A stretch of DNA of 12,119 nt from a bacterium (GCA_043803945.1 JAZDJN010000109.1:1-12119), one strand, 5' to 3'. Positions 2,593 to 12,119 are shown, counted from the stretch's first letter. Notes: a model not told the origin generated them from the letters alone. Program-made: numbers and translations.

Positions 2593-2630
2593 AACCCCAG
2601 TCAGTGATATAACTGACTGGGGTTTTTTAT
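2593..2630 (+). terminator. Rho-independent terminator of csp
   Basis: AACCCCAGTCAGT-gatata-ACTGACTGGGGTT, a 13-bp perfect stem followed by a T-run. Confidence 0.9.
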
Positions 2631-2894
2631 TTCTCGGAAAGGAATTTCGGTGAACAGAACACTTTAGTATTTTTTTATCGAAAAGATTGGAATTCCTAAC
2701 GGCAATAACGGTGAAGAGACCTTTAAAATTCCCCCGATTTCTTTCGTGTTAACAATGTTATGATCTGCCACGAAGTTCTCTTCCTGATGTTCTATACAAT
2801 TTTACACAAAGAGTTTTCTGAAGATCAGATTCGCGGAGAAAAGAAACTTACTCTCTATTATTTATCAAGCCTCTTTAGTCTTCGGAGAAATATC

Positions 2895-2925
2895 TTGCAA
2901 TCTGACTTTTCGTTCGCTATATTTG
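2895..2925 (+). promoter_or_regulatory. Candidate promoter upstream of the tRNA-Asp locus
   Basis: TTGCAA-N17-TATATT(TG). Confidence 0.5.
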
Positions 2926-3031
2926 AAACCAAGTTGAGCTTCTAACACTACTTCTGACACTTTTCAATCGAAGGAATCGGGCAAAGGTGAGAAGAAAGTG
3001 GAAAATGATCAGAAATCGAAGAAATTTATCA

Positions 3032-3096
3032 GGGGTCGTAGCTCCCGCCCAAAGATGAAGCATGGCGGGCAGGCGGTTTGGTTAGAGCACTTGCTT
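3032..3096 (+). pseudogene. Degenerate 5'-half copy of tRNA-Asp with a 30-nt hairpin-containing insertion
   Basis: GGGGTCGTAGCTC (3032-3044) equals tRNA nt 1-13. The insert is 3045-3074. Then GGTTTGGTTAGAGCACTTGCTT matches tRNA AGCTTGGTTAGAGCGCCTGCCT at 17/22 positions. Similarity stops just before the anticodon. Confidence 0.8.
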
Positions 3097-3131
3097 CCGG
3101 GTTGATCAAAAGATATTGTTCTTTACATATT

Positions 3132-3206
3132 GGGGTCGTAGCTCAGCTTGGTTAGAGCGCCTGCCTGTCACGCAGGAGGTCGCGAGTTCGAGTCTCGTCG
3201 GCCCCG
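3132..3206 (+). tRNA. tRNA-Asp (GTC)
   Basis: Acceptor stem GGGGTCG/CGGCCCC, D-arm GCTC/GAGC, anticodon arm CCTGC-CT GTC AC-GCAGG, T-arm GCGAG-TTCGAGT-CTCGT, discriminator G. CCA is not encoded. Confidence 0.97.
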
Positions 3207-3211
3207 CACAC

Positions 3212-3242
3212 AAAGCCCTCCCTGAAACCTTGGAGGGCTTTT
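3212..3242 (+). terminator. Terminator-like hairpin after tRNA-Asp
   Basis: AAAGCCCTCC-N10-GGAGGGCTTT followed by T. Confidence 0.7.
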
Positions 3243-3257
3243 CCATTCTATAACCTT

Positions 3258-3527
3258 ATGCCTCACTTTGTCTATATAATCCAGAGCAAACGCGATGGTT
3301 TGTACTATACCGGTTCTTCACATGATCCTGTTCTCAGATGCCAGCGACATAACGAAGGTTGGACCAGATCCACAAAATACAGGGGTCCGTGGAAATTAGT
3401 ATGGACAAAGAAATTCCCCACAAAGTCTGAAGCTCTTCAATTCGAACGCTACATTAAGAAAATGAAGAGTCGCGCTTTTATTGAACGACTGATCCGCGAC
3501 GCAGGAGGTCGTCCCGATTCCGAATAA
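3258..3527 (+). CDS. Small stand-alone GIY-YIG nuclease (YhbQ/UPF0213-like)
   Basis: FVYII...YYTG (GIY-YIG motif), R-xx-RHNEG, TK-x-RGPWKLV and catalytic-helix EALQFERYIKKMKSR. 89 aa. Confidence 0.92.
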   Translation: MPHFVYIIQSKRDGLYYTGSSHDPVLRCQRHNEGWTRSTKYRGPWKLVWTKKFPTKSEALQFERYIKKMKSRAFIERLIRDAGGRPDSE

Positions 3528-3554
3528 CGAAATCGGGAAGTCTCGTCGGCCCGC
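3499..3554 (+). repeat. tRNA-Asp 3'-half copy 1 (att-like), with T-arm nt CGAGTTCG replaced by a 27-nt hairpin
   Basis: ACGCAGGAGGTCG + TCCCGATTCCGAATAACGAAATCGGGA + AGTCTCGTCGGCCCGC, compared with tRNA ACGCAGGAGGTCG-CGAGTTCG-AGTCTCGTCGGCCCCGC. Confidence 0.92.
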
Positions 3555-3593
3555 CGAAGTCCCGAAGAAACGAAGAAGCGTCGGCACACTTCG
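3555..3593. repeat. REP-like hairpin (TCCCGA family, degenerate)
   Basis: GTCCCGA(3559-3565)...TCGGCAC(3581-3587), with outer arms CGAAGT/ACTTCG. Confidence 0.55.
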
Positions 3594-3752
3594 ATACAAA
3601 ATCCCTATTCAAGGTGATTTGTTTCGTACATCCTCTCCGATCACTATTCCGCCCGTACTTGACATTCCTTCCCGGCAATCGTAGTTTTGTATGCGACACG
3701 ATAGCACAGAACCAGCATTGATCCATTTGTTTTCATGGAGATCAAATGAAAC

Positions 3753-4127
3753 TTGCGAGATTCTCCATTCACTGATGCACCGCTTGTAGCCCCCACAGTA
3801 GTGAACCTATCGAGCGGCTTTTGGGGCAGGTACGAGGATGATCAGGTGACTGAGCATTGGATGGCATTTGTTGATGATTCCCTTTGGGGCATTGCTGTCT
3901 ATAATCCTCGCTGTCTCAATTTTCTGGCTGGGATTTCCGGTTCACCGGGTTGTGAAGCATCTGACGCTTCGACCTGTTACATTGCACCAGTCAAATACAA
4001 ATCACTAATGAAGAATTCGGTTTATGAATACGAATATTTTATCATCGTCGGTTCGCTGAGAACAATCCGGGCGACGGTGTACCGACTGCACGCTGGGGAG
4101 AAAGGAAATACAACTGATCACCAATAA
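3753..4127 (+). pseudogene. Probable 5'-truncated hypothetical protein (C-terminal fragment)
   Basis: Protein-like sequence (TEHWMAFVDDSLWGIAVYNP...STCYIAPV...YEYEYFIIVGSLRTIRATVY), but it starts at a TTG near the island's left end and reads like a C-terminal portion. No function recognised. Confidence 0.5.
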
Positions 4128-4305
4128 GATGCTACGATCTCACCGATGGAAGCAAACGAACTGCATTCTGCTCATTGTTGCTAATTCCAGCCAATAGATT
4201 CCCTGTACTATAGATCCGATTGTGATGAGATGAAAATAGAAAAACTATTTATGGTAATGTGGAATGGTATGATTTTTTTCGAAGAGTTATTTTCTGAATA
4301 GCCCT

Positions 4306-4344
4306 GGTGGCGCTCCCAAGAGCTCAGGAGGAGAGAGCGCCACC
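4306..4344. terminator. GC-rich inverted repeat downstream of the lipoprotein gene (possible terminator or mRNA stabiliser)
   Basis: GGTGGCGCTC-N19-GAGCGCCACC with perfect 10-bp arms. No adjacent U-tract. Confidence 0.4.
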
Positions 4345-4391
4345 TTCGTCGCTGGAGATCTCCACCATGAAGACCTCCACCGAATAGAGAC

Positions 4392-4901
4392 CTAGATAGG
4401 GCTAAACACAGGGCAGATCACGACAGGCCGTATGGAAAGGACATTTCCAGTATATACCAGTTGTACTACAAGGTGGGCAGAATCCGGTGCACCTGGAATT
4501 GCATAGCACTTCTCTACTACCGATCCCTCTGCAAGAGTACCACAACTCTCGCAGGACCTATCAGACACGATCCACAAACCGGATCCCACTTCAGCGGTTG
4601 AGTACTTCATAACAACATAGATCTCAATATCAGCGGTATTTGGACCTGTTCCTTTACTGGGCTGATTATCAGTTCCATTGCTCTGCGTGAGTAAGTAGAG
4701 GATTGATCCTTGTACCTGAATATTCCCGTAATCATAAGTAGATCTCAAAAATCGAACACTTTGGTTCAGGTCGAGCTTCCTTCTGCTCGATCCATCTACT
4801 CCAACCGACAAAGTTGACACAGGGCTTGATAGGTCATAATCCGAGCAACCGATTAGTAAGAACACGGTCACAAGGGCAAGAAAAAGATTCACGCGTTTCA
4901 T
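4392..4901 (-). CDS. Hypothetical lipoprotein
   Basis: MKRVNLFLALVTVFLLIG-C lipobox. AGGAGG RBS at 4907-4912. 169 aa with a Cys cluster in the C-terminal half. Confidence 0.75.
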   Translation of the reverse strand: MKRVNLFLALVTVFLLIGCSDYDLSSPVSTLSVGVDGSSRRKLDLNQSVRFLRSTYDYGNIQVQGSILYLLTQSNGTDNQPSKGTGPNTADIEIYVVMKYSTAEVGSGLWIVSDRSCESCGTLAEGSVVEKCYAIPGAPDSAHLVVQLVYTGNVLSIRPVVICPVFSPI

Positions 4902-5001
4902 AGATGCCTCCTTTTTATTGAAATGGATTGTTGTTTGCAGGGTGGGCTTGAAAAGCTTGAGATTTTTTTTTCTCTCGACTACCCATGCTGGAGTATCATC
5001 T

Positions 5002-5018
5002 TACAAGGTGCGTGCCGA
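5002..5018 (-). promoter_or_regulatory. sigma54 (-24/-12) promoter for the lipoprotein gene
   Basis: The minus strand reads TCGGCACG-CACC-TTGTA, compared with consensus YTGGCACG-N4-TTGCW. It lies about 100 bp upstream of the ATG, next to a sigma54 activator gene. Confidence 0.65.
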
Positions 5019-5074
5019 TGCACAAACGCTGAAATGGAATTGAAACACAAAGACGTGATAGTTGGAACCGCTTG

Positions 5075-5098
5075 ATTATGAGCAGCTCTGCTCATAAT
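5075..5098. promoter_or_regulatory. Perfect palindrome, candidate enhancer (UAS) for the adjacent sigma54 activator
   Basis: ATTATGAGCAG-ct-CTGCTCATAAT (11-bp arms, 2-nt spacer), about 60-80 bp upstream of the -24 box. Confidence 0.55.
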
Positions 5099-5215
5099 TG
5101 AACGATAGGCAGACTGTCAAGAGTAAATCAGATGCTGAAAATATCTGGGCAAGTATTCTTTGAGAAGGAGATGTTGGTAATGAGGGTGAGCACTACTCGC
5201 GTCGATGAATGATAT

Positions 5216-6757
5216 TCATTCCAGTCCGTACTTCTCTATCCGTCGTTGCACGGCATTGCGATCGATGCCGAGGAGGCGTGATGCTTGCGTAATATTTCCG
5301 TGAGTAGATTTGAGTGATAAATGAATAAGCTCCTTCTCCATCAATTCAAACAGATCTTTGCCCGAGGAATTTAAGGAAAGAAGCTCGTGTAATTCTTCCA
5401 GAAGCCTTTCAGATAACCGGAGTGTGCTTGAAGCCGGAAGAATACCGATGCCAACCGTACGGAGCTGTTCCGCAGTTATCTCTGCAGAAGAGATGAGGAT
5501 CGAGATTCGTTCGACGGTGTTGCGAAGTTCTCGTACGTTTCCTTTCCAGATAAGTTCTGAGAGATACCGATGTGCCTCGTTTGTAAAATGCTTTGCACTG
5601 CTGGAGAGTTCATTGAGAAATTTATCCGCGAGCAGCGGAATGTCTTCTATTCGTTTATTGAGCTGCGGCAAAGTGATGGGGACAACATTCAAACGATGAA
5701 AAAGATCTTCACGGAATTGTCCCTTCCGTATGGCATTGCGCAGATCGTTGTTTGTCGCTGCAATTACCCGCACATCCACGCGGTGGTCAACTGATGAGCC
5801 AACGCGACAAAACGACCGCTCCTCGAGAATGCGCAATAGTTTCGGCTGAAGCTCGAGTGGCATCGCTGAAATCTCATCGAGGAAGAGCGTCCCTCCATCT
5901 GCCAGCTCGAACTTTCCTTTCATGGTTGCCGTGGCTCCGGTGAATGCACCTTTTTCGTGACCGAAGAGCTCCGATTCAAACAGAGTCGAAGGAATCGCTG
6001 AACAGTTCACTGCCACAAAGGGCCGTTCAGCGCGAGGGCTCTGATAGTGTATCGCTTTTGCCGCTACCTCTTTACCCGTCCCGGTTTCACCCACGAGGAG
6101 AACTGTCGCATTTGTCACTGCAACGAGATTGATCGTATTGCGCACCTCTTCCATCGCTTGGCTTTTCCCAAGCAGTGCCGAAATACCTCGTTCCTGTTGA
6201 AGAGTCTCCTTCAAACGAATATTATCGCGAAAGAGGGTTTCGTGGAGTCTTGCGCGCAAGACAAACTGAGCAGCCAGAGGTGCCAGCACGTTGGCCTTGA
6301 GAACCTCATCGTCGGAAAACTTCCGCCCCCCTTTTGAGTTGACGAGATTGACAAAGCCAATCATTCTCTCCCCTGACAACAGAGGAACAGCGAGAGCCGG
6401 ACCAAGTATGAGTACTTCTTCTCGAGAGCTGCGAATTTTGAGATCTTTCACTACGTCCTCAACCAGAAGGGGCATTTTGTGTACTTCGAGCCATCCTGCC
6501 ACAACCGTATTCACACCGTGATCTATTTCTCCGGATGATTTGCGTGTGCTCCGGACAACCGTTTGAACTGCATCCCCTGCGGATTCTCCCACGAGCACAA
6601 CGGCAGCCCGCTCTGCCTTGCAAAGATCGAGAAAGCATTCAACAATTCCCTCGAGAGTTTCATAGACACCTACCACAGAACCGAGTGATTGTGCGAGACG
6701 GTGGACCCCCTCGAGTTCCTGTATGCGCTGCTTGAGTGAAGAGAGGTCGTTTGTCAT
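5216..6757 (-). CDS. sigma54-dependent transcriptional activator (GAF + AAA+ + Fis-type HTH)
   Basis: Walker [24 protein letters not shown], Walker [27 protein letters not shown] and C-terminal [15 protein letters not shown]-terminal GAF-like region ([20 protein letters not shown]). Confidence 0.95.
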
Positions 6758-6903
6758 TGGATGATTGGTGTGACTGCTGAAGAGAAGGTATAGATGTTTG
6801 CAAGAATAATCAATAATTCAGATCCTCTGCTTATGGAGACGGGTTTAGAGAATTTATGATAGGATGATACTCACTGGCACTCGACTTCGCGAACGTAACG
6901 GAC

Positions 6904-9555
6904 TCAGCGCTCAACGTACTTGACTAGCAGTGACTTATACCGCGGGTGCTCGCGGATCGGGTCCCACAGCGGATCTAGCCTCAGCGTGTGGACGCTGGAA
7001 TACGAAGGTCCAGCAACTAATCGTTCGATCTCGTCTAGCGCACCCTCAGCGTCGCCGATTTGTGCAAGAATCTGTGCGCGTTGTTCTGCGACCCAAAATC
7101 CTTCTTCGAAGAAGTCACGACGGTAGGGCTCTGATTGTTGCAGCCAGTGCGCCTCGCGACGTGCCTCCTCCTGACGGCCGAGCCCGGCTAGTGTGAGACC
7201 GCGGCCCGCATGCACGCGCCAGTCTTCCGGTAGTTCTCTCAGCATCGAATCAACGATTCCCAGCGACAATTTGAACGCCGCCATCGCGGCCGGGCGGTCA
7301 CCGCGCAACTGGTGTGCCCAGCCCACGAACAAGGAATTGGGCAGATAGGACGACTGCATAACGATCACTTTGTCGCGCGACAAGGAAAGGAAACTCAGCA
7401 GGCTGTCGGCTTGACGTTCCCAGTACAGAAGCATAGCATGACTGGATTTTTTAAATGTCGAGTTCATCGGCATGTGATCCAGCGCCACCCGCAGTGTGTC
7501 AAATTGCCCCTTCCAGGCGACATAGATCCATCCCTTCATTATGGCAATGCCATTCAAGTCCGGAGCGAGGCTCAAGGCATGATCGCACAACCGGACCGCC
7601 TCGGCGTAGCGATGCATCGCTTTGTAGGTATATGCGCCTAGGTCCCAGAACAGATCCGCGTCCCGCGGAGCTATCAGTGTGGCCTTCTCGAATGCGGCGA
7701 GGGCCTCATTCCAGTTCCCGAGCCGGCGCTGCGCATACCCGATCGCGCTCCAGAGCGTCCCATCATTGGGTAATCCCTTCAGTGCGATCGTGAACTCCTC
7801 CAACGCCTTCCGCCAGTCGCGGTGCGCATAATGCACCCGGCCCATCGCGATATGAGCCTGCGGTAGATCCGGCGCGAGCCGGAGCGTAGCTTCCGCTTCC
7901 TCACGCATGCGAGTTGCTCGCAACGGCGTGGGATCGGCACGTAAAAAGTACTTACGGCTATGCACCACTGAAAGTGCTGCGTGGGCCAATGCGAAACCCG
8001 AATCGAGTGCCAACGCCCGCTCAAACATATGTTGGGCGATATCCATGTTCTCTTTGACGTAGCCTGGGCGAGCATAGTACTCGCAGCCCTGAAGATAGAA
8101 CCGGTAAGCCTCGGCATTTGCCGTCGGGATCGATGTAATTCTCTCTTGTTCAGTGCTGGTGAGCGCTCCGCCCACCGCTGCAACGATCCGCTGTGCTACC
8201 TCACTCTGGATTGCAAAAGCGTCGTCCAGTGTACGGTCGTACCGCTCTGCCCACAGGTGCACGTCCGTGGTCGCATCGATCAACTGGACATTCACCCGCA
8301 ACCTCCCATCCACCACTTGCACGCTCCCCTCCACCACGCTTGCTACCCCCAGCTCGCTCGCGATTTGCCTCAATGGGGTCTTCATCCCTTCGTAGCTCAT
8401 TACCGAGGTGCGGCTGATTACTGTGAGTGCCGACACCTTCGACAGTTGTGTCAGTAGTTCGTCGTGCAGCCCACCGGCGAAATAAGCGTGCGGTCCCCCG
8501 GGGCTCAGGTTCTGGAATGGTAGTACAGCAATGGATTTGTTACGTACGTTAGTCTTGAGAGGTAAGAGGAAATACAATCCTACGAGAGCAAGCAGTACAA
8601 CTGTCACCGTACTCAAACCAATCTTTAAACGCTTTTTTGTGATTGTCGCCTTCGTCGCTCTTTGTAGGTCGGCTATCAATTCATCGATCTTTTGGTATCT
8701 GTCGGATACTTTCTTCTCCAGACACTTCTCAATAATCTTTTCTAGCTTCTGAGGAACATCTTTCCGTAAAGTAGTCACCGGCTGTGGTATTTCATTCAGT
8801 ATGTAGTACACAACGGCATCGTAAGACTCGCTCTTGAAGGGAAGCTGGCCAGTGATCATCTCATAGAGAACAACGCCGAGCGACCAGATATCGCTGCGTT
8901 GATCTAGTTTCTCCCCTATTGCTTGCTCGGGGGACATATATGCTATTGTTCCGGGTGTTGATCCAGTTTTCGTCAGCTTCGTTTGTCCCCTTAGACCCAC
9001 CTGGCCAACAATAGCGTGCTTCGCTGTTGCCTCAAGACCAGCGTCAGTTTGAGTCGATCGTTCATTCGTCAACCTCTTGCGTTCTGCTAACTTGGCAAGG
9101 CCGAAGTCGACAATTTTTACCTTCCCTTCTTTCGTCAGCATGATGTTTGCCGGTTTGATATCCCGATGTATCATCGCTGTCGAATGTGCTCTCTGCAGCC
9201 CCTTGGCTGTTTGGAGAGCAATATCGATTGCTTCACCAATCGGCAATGGCCCGCGTTCAATCTTCTTCTTTAAGGTCTCCCCTTCATACAAGTCCATGCA
9301 GATATACAATTGTCCATCTGAAGTTTCATCGATGTCGTGAATTGTGCAGATGTTATCGTGCTGGAGAGCTGATGCTGCTTGTGCCTCGCGTATAAAACGT
9401 TCTTTTGCTTCCGTGTCGCGGGTAAGTTCAGGAGGGAGAAATTTGAGGGCTACATAGCGTTTGAGTCTGGTGTCGTACGCTTTGTATACTACACCCATCC
9501 CGCCCGCACCGATGCGTTCCATGATTTTGTAGTGGGCTATGGTCGTTCCGATCAT
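6904..9555 (-). CDS. Hanks-type Ser/Thr protein kinase with TM helix, TolB-like 'SIAVLPF' domain and TPR repeats
   Basis: GAGGMGVVY, VALK, HRDIKPANIM, DFG, YMSPEQ, SDIWSLG. TM segment LSTVTVVLLALVGLYFLL, then KSIAVLPFQNLS, TPR-like helices and terminal DPLWDPIREHPRY. Confidence 0.95.
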   Translation of the reverse strand: MIGTTIAHYKIMERIGAGGMGVVYKAYDTRLKRYVALKFLPPELTRDTEAKERFIREAQAASALQHDNICTIHDIDETSDGQLYICMDLYEGETLKKKIERGPLPIGEAIDIALQTAKGLQRAHSTAMIHRDIKPANIMLTKEGKVKIVDFGLAKLAERKRLTNERSTQTDAGLEATAKHAIVGQVGLRGQTKLTKTGSTPGTIAYMSPEQAIGEKLDQRSDIWSLGVVLYEMITGQLPFKSESYDAVVYYILNEIPQPVTTLRKDVPQKLEKIIEKCLEKKVSDRYQKIDELIADLQRATKATITKKRLKIGLSTVTVVLLALVGLYFLLPLKTNVRNKSIAVLPFQNLSPGGPHAYFAGGLHDELLTQLSKVSALTVISRTSVMSYEGMKTPLRQIASELGVASVVEGSVQVVDGRLRVNVQLIDATTDVHLWAERYDRTLDDAFAIQSEVAQRIVAAVGGALTSTEQERITSIPTANAEAYRFYLQGCEYYARPGYVKENMDIAQHMFERALALDSGFALAHAALSVVHSRKYFLRADPTPLRATRMREEAEATLRLAPDLPQAHIAMGRVHYAHRDWRKALEEFTIALKGLPNDGTLWSAIGYAQRRLGNWNEALAAFEKATLIAPRDADLFWDLGAYTYKAMHRYAEAVRLCDHALSLAPDLNGIAIMKGWIYVAWKGQFDTLRVALDHMPMNSTFKKSSHAMLLYWERQADSLLSFLSLSRDKVIVMQSSYLPNSLFVGWAHQLRGDRPAAMAAFKLSLGIVDSMLRELPEDWRVHAGRGLTLAGLGRQEEARREAHWLQQSEPYRRDFFEEGFWVAEQRAQILAQIGDAEGALDEIERLVAGPSYSSVHTLRLDPLWDPIREHPRYKSLLVKYVER

Positions 9556-9770
9556 CCGTAATCCTTTGATTTACAATCGGAAGAAGATCTGAATCTATAT
9601 CGCAATCCGCGACAGAAGGCTCTCTTTGCGGATAGAAATGTCAATGCAAAGCTACTATAGTTATGAGACTAAGTCAAACCTTGAAGATTCTATTCGACGA
9701 TATTCAATGCTATTTCGCTCTCTTGAGAATCAGAAAATTACGATTTTCAATTTTCACCACCCGCTACTAC

Positions 9771-9826
9771 CGCAGGAGGTCGTCCCGATTCCGAATAACG
9801 AAATCGGGAAGTCTCGTCGGCCCCGC
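9771..9826 (+). repeat. tRNA-Asp 3'-half copy 2 (att-like) carrying the same 27-nt hairpin
   Basis: CGCAGGAGGTCG-TCCCGATTCCGAATAACGAAATCGGGA-AGTCTCGTCGGCCCCGC. Confidence 0.92.
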
Positions 9827-9839
9827 TTCCAAAACACAA

Positions 9840-9864
9840 AGGGTTAGCGATGTATGCTAACCCT
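9840..9864 (+). terminator. Hairpin following the tRNA 3' fragment (possible original post-tRNA terminator)
   Basis: AGGGTTAGC-gatgtat-GCTAACCCT. U-tract weak. Confidence 0.5.
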
Positions 9865-9878
9865 GATTCGTTTTGTGA

Positions 9879-9901
9879 ATCCTGACGATTTGTGTCGGGA
9901 T
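9879..9901. repeat. REP-like hairpin (TCCCGA family)
   Basis: ATCCTGAC-gatttgt-GTCGGGAT (one T.G pair). Confidence 0.6.
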
Positions 9902-9942
9902 GTGTTTTCAGAATTCCGCCGTTTTGTGGTTGGAAGAAGAAT

Positions 9943-9963
9943 AAACCCCTTTATGGGGTTTTT
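9943..9963 (+). terminator. Terminator-like hairpin
   Basis: AAACCCC-tttat-GGGGTTT followed by TT. Confidence 0.5.
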
Positions 9964-9999
9964 CATTTCTGTACTGGAAAAAGATTCATATCTCGCCTG

Positions 10000-10044
10000 T
10001 CCCGACTTTTCCCGATTCTTTCTATCGGAGGTCTTTTGTCGGGA
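10000..10044. repeat. Nested REP-like hairpins (TCCCGA family)
   Basis: Outer TCCCGAC(10000-10006)...GTCGGGA(10038-10044) encloses inner TCCCGAT(10010-10016)...ATCGGAG(10024-10030). Confidence 0.65.
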
Positions 10045-10090
10045 TCGGTCCCACAATCTTTTGCTCACCTCACAATCAATGAGGTGATTA

Positions 10091-10222
10091 ATGTTGTCCA
10101 TCTTCTATCGCTCCAACGCTATCTACTACATCTCCTATGAGGTCGATGGAGTTCGTCAATGGAAGAGCACCGGTACAACTCGAAGGACTGAAGCGATCAA
10201 TATACCTGACAAGTTTCCCACT
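10091..10222 (+). pseudogene. Probable N-terminal remnant of a tyrosine integrase (arm-binding-like region)
   Basis: GAGGTG RBS, then MLSIFYRSNAIYYISYEVDGVRQWKSTGTTRRTEAI, which resembles integrase N-termini (YYxxYxxxGxRxxxSTGTxxxxEA). It sits next to a tRNA-derived att. The frame then runs antisense into the next gene with no catalytic domain. End coordinate approximate. Confidence 0.55.
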
Positions 10223-10258
10223 GTTGTGCCAATAGTAAGTATTTTATTCCTTCATTTC

Positions 10259-12119
10259 TCACTTCAACAGCAACAGCTTACGCGTCTGCTGAAATTGACC
10301 CGCAACCAGGCGATAGAAATACATTCCACTCGGAAGATCGGTCGCACGAAATGTGACCGTATACACTCCTGCAGGTCGCTGCTCGTTGACGAGCTCAGCG
10401 ACTTGCTGACCCAGTGAATTAAAGACGCGAAGGTTCACAAATTCCTCTGCAGGGAGTTCGTACACAATCTGCGTCGTCGGATTGAACGGATTGGGATAAT
10501 TCTGTTCCAGTTGGAACTGTTGCGGTAAAGTGCTGCCCGTTTTATCTCCACCGACCGATGCAGGAATAGATCCGCACCCCCACTTGGCAATATACTTTGC
10601 ACTCACTCCTCCGGCTGTAGTAAATATTCCCGCTGCATAGAGATCCTGCCCGATTACCGCAAGACGCCAGACGCCATCATTCATCCCGGCTCCGAGCGGC
10701 GACCAGGATGTACCATTCCATTTAGCAACACTATTTGCGCTCACACCTTCAGCAGTCGTAAAGCTTCCGGATGCATAAAGATCCGTTCCCATCGCGGCAA
10801 AGCCTTCTACACTATTATTCATCCCGTTAGTGCTGCCAGTTCCGAATGAGGACCAGGTCGAGCCATTCCATTTAGCAATAAAATTCGCATTATTTCCATC
10901 GGCTGTAGTAAATCTTCCGCCGGCATAGAGAGTTCCAGCCATCATCTCAAGACCAGTTCCTCCGATAAAGAAGTTCATTCCTGATCCAAGCTGAGACCAG
11001 GTTGTGCCATTCCATTTAGCAATACGATTTGCAGGCACCACTCCAGCAAGTGTGAATTGTCCTCCAGCATAGAGGGATGATCCATCAACCAAGAACGATG
11101 ATACGTAATCGTTCATTACGCTGAACGGCGACCAATTTACGCCATCCCATTTAGCTATAAGATTTCCAGGGCCTCCCAATGCCGGTGTCAAAATATATGA
11201 TGTGGCATAGAGAGTATTTCCCATTGCTGCAAGAGCATTAATAGCACCAGCCGCAGAAAGTCCGCTTCCGAGCGCTGACCAGTTTGTGCCATCCCATTTA
11301 GCAATATTTAGTGCAGGGATACCTCCAGCAGAAGTAAACCAGCCGCCGGCATAAAGATCAGTTCCAATTACAGCAAGTGCTGATACCATTCCATTAATAC
11401 CATTTACACCGTTACCACTGCTAATAAGTGGCGACCAATTAGAACCGTTCCATTTTGCGATATGATTTGCTGTAGTGCCTCCGGTAGTTGTAAAGTTTCC
11501 GCCCACATACAGATCCGATCCTATAACCGCAAGAGCCCACACCTCACCATTCGTTCCATTATTTATTCCGGTTCCGAGCGGTGACCATGCTTTCGTTCCA
11601 TTTGTACACGGATCGAGTTTGTTTCCGAAATAGAGAGTATCGATGTTCTGACCTGCTGCAAGCAATACTGTGTAGGTGCCCGGAGCAATTGGGAGCGTTT
11701 GCACCCATCCGTTTTGGTTTGTCTCTGAAACCGTATACGTCCCAGCCTTCAAGTTGTTGAAACAATACTTGCCTTCTTTGTCTGTTTTCACAGGTGGAAA
11801 TGATGTTCCATTCAAGTTGATCTGCCAGTTCGGTAATCCCGGTTCACCACGATCCATGATACCATTGCCATTCAAGTCGTTGAACTTCACGCCGCAAATA
11901 GAACCGAGCGTGGGCGTTGCACATGTTATCGTTATTGCATCAAGAAAATTTCCGCCAGCTTCCGTACCACCTACGGGGAGAGAAATAAATCGTAACTCAT
12001 ACGCCGTAACACTATTATTAGGAAATGTGTAAGTGACACTATCCTTTTTCCAGACTGTCGTACTTGTGTATGTTCCTAAAATACTGTCTACACCATTAGC
12101 AGGTCTAATGGCTACACTC
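10259..12119 (-). CDS. Large secreted protein with SdrD-B-like domain, beta-propeller repeats and T9SS type A C-terminal sorting domain; 5' end lies beyond the window
   Basis: The frame is open upstream of 11890 to the edge (...[47 protein letters not shown]). [23 protein letters not shown] is SdrD-B-like. About seven ~50-aa repeats of W-s-LG-G-NG-V-ALA-xG-DLYAGG-FT-AGG-xA-xIAKWxG. The CTD is [15 protein letters not shown]...SGMYFYRL...RKLLLLK. Confidence 0.9.

Follow-up and report, generated by a model that had tools for sequence, protein, structure and literature searches.

Genomic islands that enter tRNA genes by means of a tyrosine integrase leave a displaced 3' tRNA fragment as attR, and homing endonucleases of the SegB kind carry added DNA-binding domains and cut double-stranded DNA. 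SegB itself is a free-standing GIY-YIG homing endonuclease of phage T4 encoded in a tRNA gene cluster (PMC2330249). The Ssn nucleases, single-domain GIY-YIG proteins of ~94 amino acids, are described in the main text of Chenal et al. 2025 (PMC11893778) as binding their hairpin repeat only as single-stranded DNA and cutting a few bases upstream of the hairpin; according to the same text the identity of the loop is dispensable, the bases beside the palindrome are needed, and the genes are usually flanked by such hairpins, the NTS/SRM repeats. Here we describe a locus on a 12,119-nt stretch of bacterial DNA (GCA_043803945.1 JAZDJN010000109.1:1-12119, contig C109; this whole stretch is called the window below), in which the gene of a minimal GIY-YIG nuclease, P0001, lies behind an intact tRNA-Asp gene and runs into a partial second copy of that tRNA, in whose T arm eight bases are replaced by a hairpin. 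By analogy with the Ssn systems, we consider it reasonably probable that this arrangement is a tRNA-riding cassette of the Ssn type, that is, a single-stranded-DNA nuclease together with its own hairpin, lodged in a tRNA-Asp gene.

The resemblance to the Ssn systems, as far as the text of that paper covers them, extends to the size of P0001 (about 90 amino acids), to the presence of a GIY-YIG domain only, to residues Y6, Y17 and E63, which stand at the places of the mutated Y6, Y17 and E64 of SsnA, and to the position of both genes beside 20-50-nt hairpins with a conserved stem-end sequence and a free loop. In the case of P0001 these hairpins are one of 27 nt over the stop codon (3512-3538) and a CCCG hairpin of 26 nt located 190 nt upstream (3044-3069). 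The window hairpin differs in being off the published SRM consensus and in lying inside a partial tRNA copy with two copies in the genome, whereas the Ssn hairpins described in that text lie free in intergenic DNA. The main text of the Ssn paper never mentions tRNA, and its text supplements do so only in gene-function lists (PMC11893778). With SegB the locus shares the placement of GIY-YIG genes among tRNA genes and an inheritance linked to that of the adjacent tRNA DNA. P0001, in contrast, consists of nothing but its catalytic domain, and duplicated tRNA halves or hairpins are absent from the SegB abstract (PMC2330249).

As in integrase islands, one end is marked by an intact tRNA and the other by a directly repeated 3' part of the target tRNA (gene positions 39-73 at 3499-3552, hairpin-substituted, and again at 9771-9826), and several modules are stacked behind one tRNA; in contrast to them, neither the cassette nor a 6.2-kb insert behind it contains an integrase, and the displaced fragment bears a specific hairpin. 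A preprint deals with such islands (10.1101/2020.12.28.424599). In REP/REPIN-RAYT systems, too, a gene of the small nuclease type is accompanied by short hairpin repeats that are recognised in single-stranded form, and both kinds occur in this genome, but their enzyme is an HUH tyrosine (Y1, IS200-like) transposase rather than a GIY-YIG hydrolase, and the RAYT hairpins found here have a 5' GTAG-type flank and do not lie in tRNA pieces. The UPF0213/Slx1-like proteins 1zg2 (BH0048) and 1ywl (EF2693) consist of the same minimal domain, but their entries carry no stated function, and we know of no tRNA or hairpin context for UPF0213 proteins. A literature search returned phage SegB and organelle homing endonucleases, and no bacterial tRNA-lodged minimal GIY-YIG cassette with hairpin-plugged tRNA pieces was found in it.

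Results

The nuclease gene ends in a hairpin-substituted piece of tRNA-Asp

The intact tRNA-Asp gene is the only tRNA gene of the window according to ARAGORN and the only tRNA-Asp gene found genome-wide (coordinates of all features in Table 1). Its 3' half is present a second time behind P0001, where bases 3499-3511 match gene positions 39-51 (window 3170-3182) and bases 3539-3552 match gene positions 60-73 (window 3191-3204). The eight bases that should lie between these blocks, CGAGTTCG (3183-3190, gene positions 52-59, approximately canonical positions 50-57, i.e. the 5' strand of the T stem and four T-loop bases), are swapped for the 27-base hairpin TCCCGAT..ATCGGGA. An earlier reading of the sequence (the original prediction) had proposed such an 8-nt replacement in the T arm, and the exact blocks on both sides of the hairpin bear it out. 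Its statement that no target duplication had occurred holds for the hairpin edges, at which zero bases are duplicated, but not for the hairpin-bearing piece: the hairpin itself is a substitution, and the surrounding piece duplicates everything between the anticodon loop and the 3' end of the tRNA, which yields a 38-base direct repeat split by the hairpin. Since two collinear exact blocks of 13 and 14 bases match the only tRNA of the window, the whole 53-base piece recurs exactly, and the layout recurs in other genomes (see below), the arrangement is beyond chance. Only the intact tRNA, and not the plugged copies, was recognised as a tRNA by ARAGORN and Rfam. Rfam found only the tRNA across 2600-10300 at E <= 1, and the idea of a group I intron or another known RNA at the junction in the anticodon loop was therefore rejected.

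As had been predicted, the open reading frame (ORF) of P0001 reads into the tRNA fragment, ends with ..DAGGRPDSE and stops at a TAA (3525-3527) within the hairpin loop, so that residues 81-89 are encoded by the tRNA piece and the hairpin. The expectation that the frame would continue without the hairpin also proved correct, as a frame with the eight tRNA bases restored in its place runs 135 codons; turning the TAA into a sense codon lengthens the frame by 30 codons.

A decayed 5' pseudo-half of tRNA-Asp is located 35 nt upstream of the intact gene. It carries the 26-nt hairpin (CCCGCC..GGCGGG) in its D-loop region, followed by a stretch resembling the D arm and anticodon stem (3077-3096, 16/19 bases matching the tRNA). 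A 5' piece with a TCCCGC..GCGGGA hairpin upstream of tRNA-Asp was also present at three other loci (L042, L048 and L058). The 5' pseudo-half and the 3' piece could be the two halves of a tRNA that was split by a cassette bringing its own tRNA.

The hairpin belongs to a class with invariant ends

For a comparison of hairpins, 62 distinct ORFs of P0001 relatives were examined, in a range of -35 to +45 nt around the stop codon, for hairpins that start with TCCCG or CCCCG, which gave 29 distinct hairpins in 31 sequence contexts; the surveyed loci are kin, picked by protein similarity, and their contigs are metagenome-type assemblies. The hairpins always begin with TCCCG/CCCCG and end with CGGGA/CGGGG. 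Pairs 1-4 were invariant in the 29 distinct hairpins, pair 5 was A-T in 26 and C-G in three, and pair 6 was paired in all 28 hairpins scored (T-A 13, C-G 11, A-T 2, G-T wobble 2), a pattern at pairs 5 and 6 that reads as covariation. Deeper pairs vary widely yet mostly pair: the hairpins of the window and of two relatives (G018 and L031) have the outer seven pairs in common, and their inner stems are different but still complementary. Many of the hairpins have loops of 2-4 bases. The flanks are also fixed: of the 31 contexts, 18 have GGTCG in front of the hairpin, and AGTC follows it in 18. The class of the T-arm plug of the window can be written CG|TCCCGA...TCGGGA|AG. Hairpins of the anticodon-arm types are preceded by GAGCG and followed by AGGT, and a 33-base repeat block is left in these types. 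A more distant clade of the nuclease (35-39% identical) is accompanied by a different hairpin, TGGCGC..GCGCCA, which replaces the anticodon arm; one example is the tandem array of G016 described below. The invariant ends, fixed flanks and covarying stems argue for an element of sequence plus structure and not for a random disruption.

In energetic terms the window hairpin is unexceptional (z = -0.52 for its 71-nt context; 50 of 200 shuffles fold as well), and the case for it therefore rests on comparison. It is not a dispersed repeat, as only two copies were found genome-wide (5.5 Mb in 118 contigs) with up to six substitutions allowed. Hairpins of this class also occur where no ORF reads in, namely in the second copy of the window (9771-9823), at L024:4546 and in L027.

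The stop codon lies in the loop

Sixteen hairpins of the TCCCG/CCCCG class are entered by the frame of the nuclease, and 13 of them contain an in-frame stop (TAA, TAG or TGA), counts which overstate independence because the loci are kin but to which six or more distinct hairpin sequences and each of the three stop codons contribute. The remaining three are read through, with a stop within ten bases after the hairpin. In the other two frames of the same 16 hairpins a stop was present in 0/16 and 1/16. With the tRNA block held identical to the tRNA and the stem held by pairing, a stop could probably arise only in the loop, which would hold it as the only stretch free of pairing or tRNA identity; on this view the hairpin is not there "to supply the stop". 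A comparison of the C-termini of homologs, for which the original prediction expected variable tails encoded by tRNA or hairpin, gave this result: the tails vary with the abutting tRNA piece, reading AGGRPD.. where it is tRNA-Asp and RDVAQPG where it is the 5' end of tRNA-Pro, with stops in D-loops.

P0001 is predicted to be a minimal nuclease under purifying selection

P0001 is a single-domain protein of 89 amino acids that matches PF01541 over residues 3-71 (E 9e-19, 68 bits against a cut-off of 22.6), its sole Pfam domain; no added DNA-binding domain was found by Pfam, and no NCBIfam family matched. In a search of the PDB the best solved relatives were the UPF0213 proteins 1zg2 (E 8e-12) and 1ywl (E 2e-6), followed by SLX1. 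The nearest named relatives belong to metagenome-assembled genomes of Ignavibacteria/Bacteroidota. Residues Y6, Y17, G19, R27, H31, N32, W45, E63 and K67 are conserved, each being shared by 42-43 of the 43 relatives that were aligned. The catalytic core comprises approximately residues 1-79, conservation falling after I79, and because it ends at the junction the last nine codons can be read from the tRNA piece and the hairpin. Among the genes of the window, L030 and L031, pN was 0.12-0.15 and pS 0.79-0.87, i.e. synonymous sites are saturated, and from this saturated pS with low pN it follows that the gene is old and under purifying selection. By these measures P0001 is predicted to be a minimal UPF0213/Slx1-like GIY-YIG nuclease maintained by purifying selection.

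The package recurs beside different tRNA genes

Relatives of P0001, counted at E <= 1e-8, were found in 155 of the 301 genomes of the class sample. Among the best 29 loci outside the window, 22 have a tRNA gene within ~150 nt of the GIY-YIG gene (Asp 16, Pro 2, Ala, Ser, Val and Met one each), and 21 of these 22 contain extra pieces of the adjoining tRNA; the other seven show no tRNA, several of them lying at contig ends. At 12 of the 13 loci that have it, the 3' piece (gene positions 59/60-75/76) shows 100% identity with the local tRNA, and the tRNAs differ between genomes. For a tRNA block to stay identical beside saturated synonymous sites, ongoing gene conversion or selection is needed. 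The full order of tRNA-Asp, nuclease gene and hairpin-plugged 3' half was present in five genomes (G018, G003, G005, G032 and G035). In a public genome collection, an intact tRNA gene (Asp, Gly, Val or Phe) lay just upstream in 8 of 12 loci; the same design was seen in records labelled Rhodothermia (a tRNA-Gly piece with the same eight bases replaced), Chloroflexia (a tRNA-Val piece with the anticodon arm replaced) and Cloacimonadota (a hairpin-plugged piece of the local tRNA). Hairpin-plugged tRNA pieces without a nuclease gene are common as well and were found up- or downstream of tRNA-Asp at L043, L044, L048, L052 and L058.

Tandem arrays were seen as well. L091 (G016:C2 364300-369156) consists of 14 tandem units of ~298 bases running to the contig end, each composed of a GIY-YIG gene and a tRNA-Pro-like piece in which a TGGCGCC..GGCGCCA hairpin takes the place of the anticodon arm, and the next gene starts ~2 bases past the tRNA-like 3' end. 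In L027 (G032:C5, 1164-1385) the intact tRNA-Asp is preceded by a tandem pair (period 133) of pseudo-tRNA-Asp copies, both of full length and both with a hairpin in place of T-arm sequence.

The genome of the window itself contains 18 Pfam-level GIY-YIG matches, five of which adjoin tRNA genes: Asp, Pro(GGG), Ser(TGA), Ser(GCT) and Ser(CGA). The frame of the closest paralog of P0001 (contig C99, 43% identical) enters an intact tRNA-Pro from the 5' side and terminates in the D loop; in front of it lies a hairpin-bearing 5' piece of this tRNA-Pro. A canonical Ssn-type locus is present at C112:9007-9760, where a GIY-YIG paralog (9366-9587) is flanked by five SRM-consensus hairpins in both orientations; a regular expression for the published SRM matched 50 sites in the genome, including a cluster at this paralog, and 19 in a shuffle. 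A GIY-YIG remnant covering the first ~28 domain positions (C103:44939-45022) lies 39 nt downstream of tRNA-Ser(CGA) and probably represents the remains of a cassette.

The hairpin piece takes part in DNA gain and loss

Behind the cassette, 6,218 bases lie between two exact 53-base repeats of the hairpin piece (Table 1). The second copy extends to the full tRNA 3' end, and as no gene on the + strand reads into it, its TAA terminates nothing. The insert holds, besides the two genes listed, two ORFs without a Pfam match, and no integrase domain was detected by Pfam in the ORFs of 3208-9770. A conserved flank with a long stem-loop follows the second copy in the window; the same flank comes after a plain tRNA-Asp in G009 (L060) and directly after the hairpin piece in L031, from which the 6.2-kb insert is absent. 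By this comparison of G009, L031 and the window, the cassette and the 6.2 kb are either additions between the tRNA and its old neighbour or precise losses elsewhere via the repeats. The hairpin piece takes part in DNA gain and loss: at this one conserved site the cassette is missing in G009 and present in L031 and the window, a picture that precise loss via the repeats could also give.

Table 1. Features of the window at the tRNA-Asp locus and downstream of it
Feature	Position (nt)	Strand	Basis or remarks
Decayed 5' pseudo-half of tRNA-Asp	3032-3096	+	Gene positions 1-13 exact at 3032-3044
Intact tRNA-Asp (GTC)	3132-3207	+	ARAGORN; Rfam RF00005, 68 bits
Stem-loop behind tRNA, terminator-like, weak T run	3213-3242	+	Read from sequence
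Minimal GIY-YIG nuclease gene P0001, 89 amino acids	3258-3527	+	PF01541
Hairpin-plugged tRNA-Asp 3' half, copy 1	3499-3552	+	Left block 3499-3511, hairpin 3512-3538, right block 3539-3552
Insert between two exact 53-base repeats, 6,218 bases	3553-9770	.	Repeat comparison
Sigma-54 activator in insert	5216-6757	-	Pfam
Ser/Thr kinase with TPR repeats in insert	6904-9555	-	Pfam
Hairpin-plugged tRNA-Asp 3' half, copy 2	9771-9826	+	53/53 identical to 3500-3552
Conserved flank, long stem-loop	9827-9900	+	81.5% over 130 nt to L031; 83.9% over 93 nt to L060
Mini-module: T-stem 3' strand-like stretch, TCCCGAC..GTCGGGA hairpin, acceptor 3' strand-like end	9991-10055	+	
Possible tyrosine-integrase N-terminus remnant, weak	10091-10204	+	12/38 residues identical to N-terminus of L024 integrase, pairwise E 3e-4

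The terminator-like stem-loop between the tRNA and P0001 is common to the window and the G018 cassette, and a simple terminator scan gave no flag for it. Further downstream, the mini-module is of the same kind as modules in L013 and L024, and the possible integrase remnant following it has no Pfam match. In G003 (L024, G003:C14 1627-4594) a 2.85-kb tyrosine-integrase element lies between the 5' half of tRNA-Asp and a hairpin-plugged pseudo-tRNA-Asp. A repeat of ~25 bases, the end of which falls in the anticodon loop, bounds this element, for which the disabled tRNA copy may act as an attachment site that does no harm.

Discussion

All functional readings of the cassette given here are drawn from sequence. 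The cassette is accompanied by a second copy of the tRNA sequence between the anticodon loop and the 3' end; a working tRNA is thus kept, and a spare 3' half is left behind the nuclease gene. By analogy with Ssn, the hairpin would be the recognition element of the nuclease itself, bound as single-stranded DNA, and the cut would fall a few bases upstream of the hairpin, inside the tRNA-derived block; the pair of nuclease and hairpin might then drive or bias the events of gain and loss. The original prediction had instead suggested a cut-and-repair insertion, which is supported by nothing found here, and a hairpin that makes the fragment resistant to re-cleavage, as in homing. Such a shield leaves unexplained the invariant ends and covarying stems across phyla, the hairpins that no ORF enters and the plugs at other arms, related hairpins being found in place of other tRNA arms or next to tRNA genes that lack a nuclease gene. 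A recognition element is more likely than a shield against re-cutting, since it fits better with the conserved class, the ORF-less copies, the plugs at other arms and the precedent of Ssn as described in the main text of that paper (PMC11893778).

Several points weigh against a cassette of the Ssn type. A GIY-YIG hydrolase is unable to rejoin DNA alone, which leaves the mobility step without an explanation. The tRNA-Asp cassette is old, and its spread within its family may be largely vertical descent rather than movement. Both copies of the exact hairpin, with up to six substitutions allowed, lie in the window, i.e. no spread as a repeat is seen, and among the contig C109 matches listed for the SRM expression none falls on the window hairpin. 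The best solved relatives of P0001 belong to UPF0213, a group neighbouring the Ssn clade (cd10448), and P0001 may fall in either. The genome also contains 12 RAYT-type (Y1-transposase) matches with CCCG hairpins of their own; the enrichment of CCCG hairpins near tRNA genes (17 of 308 within 300 nt of a tRNA gene vs 1.8 expected, 14 of 47 tRNA genes being touched) is therefore not creditable to GIY-YIG genes alone, as RAYT-linked hairpins are among the 308. Finally, the contig comes from a metagenome-type assembly and may be mis-joined at the 53-base repeat.

The alternative that survives best, unlikely as we consider it, is that the hairpin is a protective plug which disables the spare tRNA half, either by removing the target of the nuclease (homing immunity), by splitting the 38-base repeat into blocks of 13 and 14-17 bases, or by preventing a harmful tRNA-like RNA. 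The substitution does destroy the T arm and break the repeat, ARAGORN and Rfam recognise the intact tRNA only, and the cassettes are long-lived. Any disruption would serve these purposes, however, and yet the ends are invariant, the flanks fixed and the stems covarying across phyla; the neighbouring intact tRNA stays unprotected, hairpins of the same class also stand elsewhere in tRNAs and next to tRNA genes that lack a nuclease gene, and a 33-base repeat block remains in the anticodon-arm types. Plugging is compatible with a cassette of the Ssn type as a second benefit, and a role as a shield or against deletion may be a side benefit of the recognition element.

Less probable still is attachment-site debris, in which the tRNA pieces and hairpins would be attL/attR and arm-site leftovers of tyrosine-integrase islands that enter tRNA-Asp repeatedly, and the GIY-YIG gene a passenger. 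In classical tRNA-integrating islands the duplicated part likewise comprises everything between the anticodon loop and the 3' end, an integrase element does lie in a hairpin-plugged pseudo-tRNA-Asp in G003, a weak integrase-like N-terminus begins at 10091, and exact 53-base repeats flank the 6.2 kb. Against this, no integrase is encoded in 3208-3498 or 3553-9770, relatives of the G003 integrase were found in only 4/89 loci, and the package of nuclease, hairpin and tRNA piece recurs with different tRNAs and in tandem arrays without integrases. The crossover region of tyrosine recombinases comprises 6-8 bases, for which the many hairpin loops of 2-4 bases are too short. Least probable of all is an RNA-level element, i.e. 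a terminator or 3' stabiliser of the nuclease mRNA with the loop stop coupling translation: the hairpin does stand at the very 3' end of the ORF and in-frame loop stops are enriched, but an intrinsic terminator is ruled out by the missing T run after 3538, a negative terminator scan and the ORF-less copies (copy 2 and several others), relatives have a separate terminator-like stem after the piece, and the hairpin has no Rfam match.

Beyond the locus itself, we offer as a tentative and rather doubtful generalisation that hairpin-plugged tRNA halves might be the active termini of a separate type of mobile DNA. In place of an integrase or transposase, such DNA would rely on a single-strand-specific GIY-YIG nuclease without further domains and on the hairpin that belongs to it; it would insert DNA into tRNA genes with restoration of the tRNA, multiply to form tandem arrays and leave behind hairpin-marked pseudo-tRNA sites on which other DNA can land safely. 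Examples of such landing would be the 6.2-kb insert between the 53-base copies and the integrase element of G003. The recurrence of the package beside tRNA genes in many bacteria looks like little-described selfish DNA. If the interpretation as a cassette of the Ssn type is right, tRNA genes of many bacterial phyla host nuclease cassettes made of a catalytic domain of ~80 residues and a hairpin, and Ssn-type nucleases would gain a natural genomic role in residing in and remodelling tRNA loci; it would also provide ready enzyme-substrate pairs for studying how a small protein reads sequence plus structure, and would explain many "broken tRNA" fragments and odd tRNA-like annotation calls. The stop-in-loop rule would illustrate how a mobile gene borrows its end from the DNA beside it, and the exact 53-base repeats around the 6.2 kb suggest that the pieces also shape the gain of ordinary genes. 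What the window adds is the T-arm substitution form in Ignavibacteria-like genomes, the stop-in-loop statistic, the comparison with an empty site and the exact repeats bounding the 6.2-kb insert.

Other hairpin-bearing loci of the same genome

At C102:55688-56083, and likewise at C60:19302-19773, at least four tandem 99-base units without a nuclease gene stand behind tRNA-Met; each unit reproduces the T-arm region and the 3' end of the tRNA, the T loop being interrupted by nested hairpins. Contig C25 contains a hairpin-plugged tRNA-Glu piece, also without a nuclease gene. A REP/RAYT origin of the window locus was rejected, as none of the 12 Y1-transposase matches lies there. Hairpins with a 5' GTAG-type flank and a CCCGAAATC stem are located at C18:82708-83692 and C16:127076-127253; they adjoin a Y1-transposase (RAYT-like) match at C18:83277-83603 and form a separate hairpin system.

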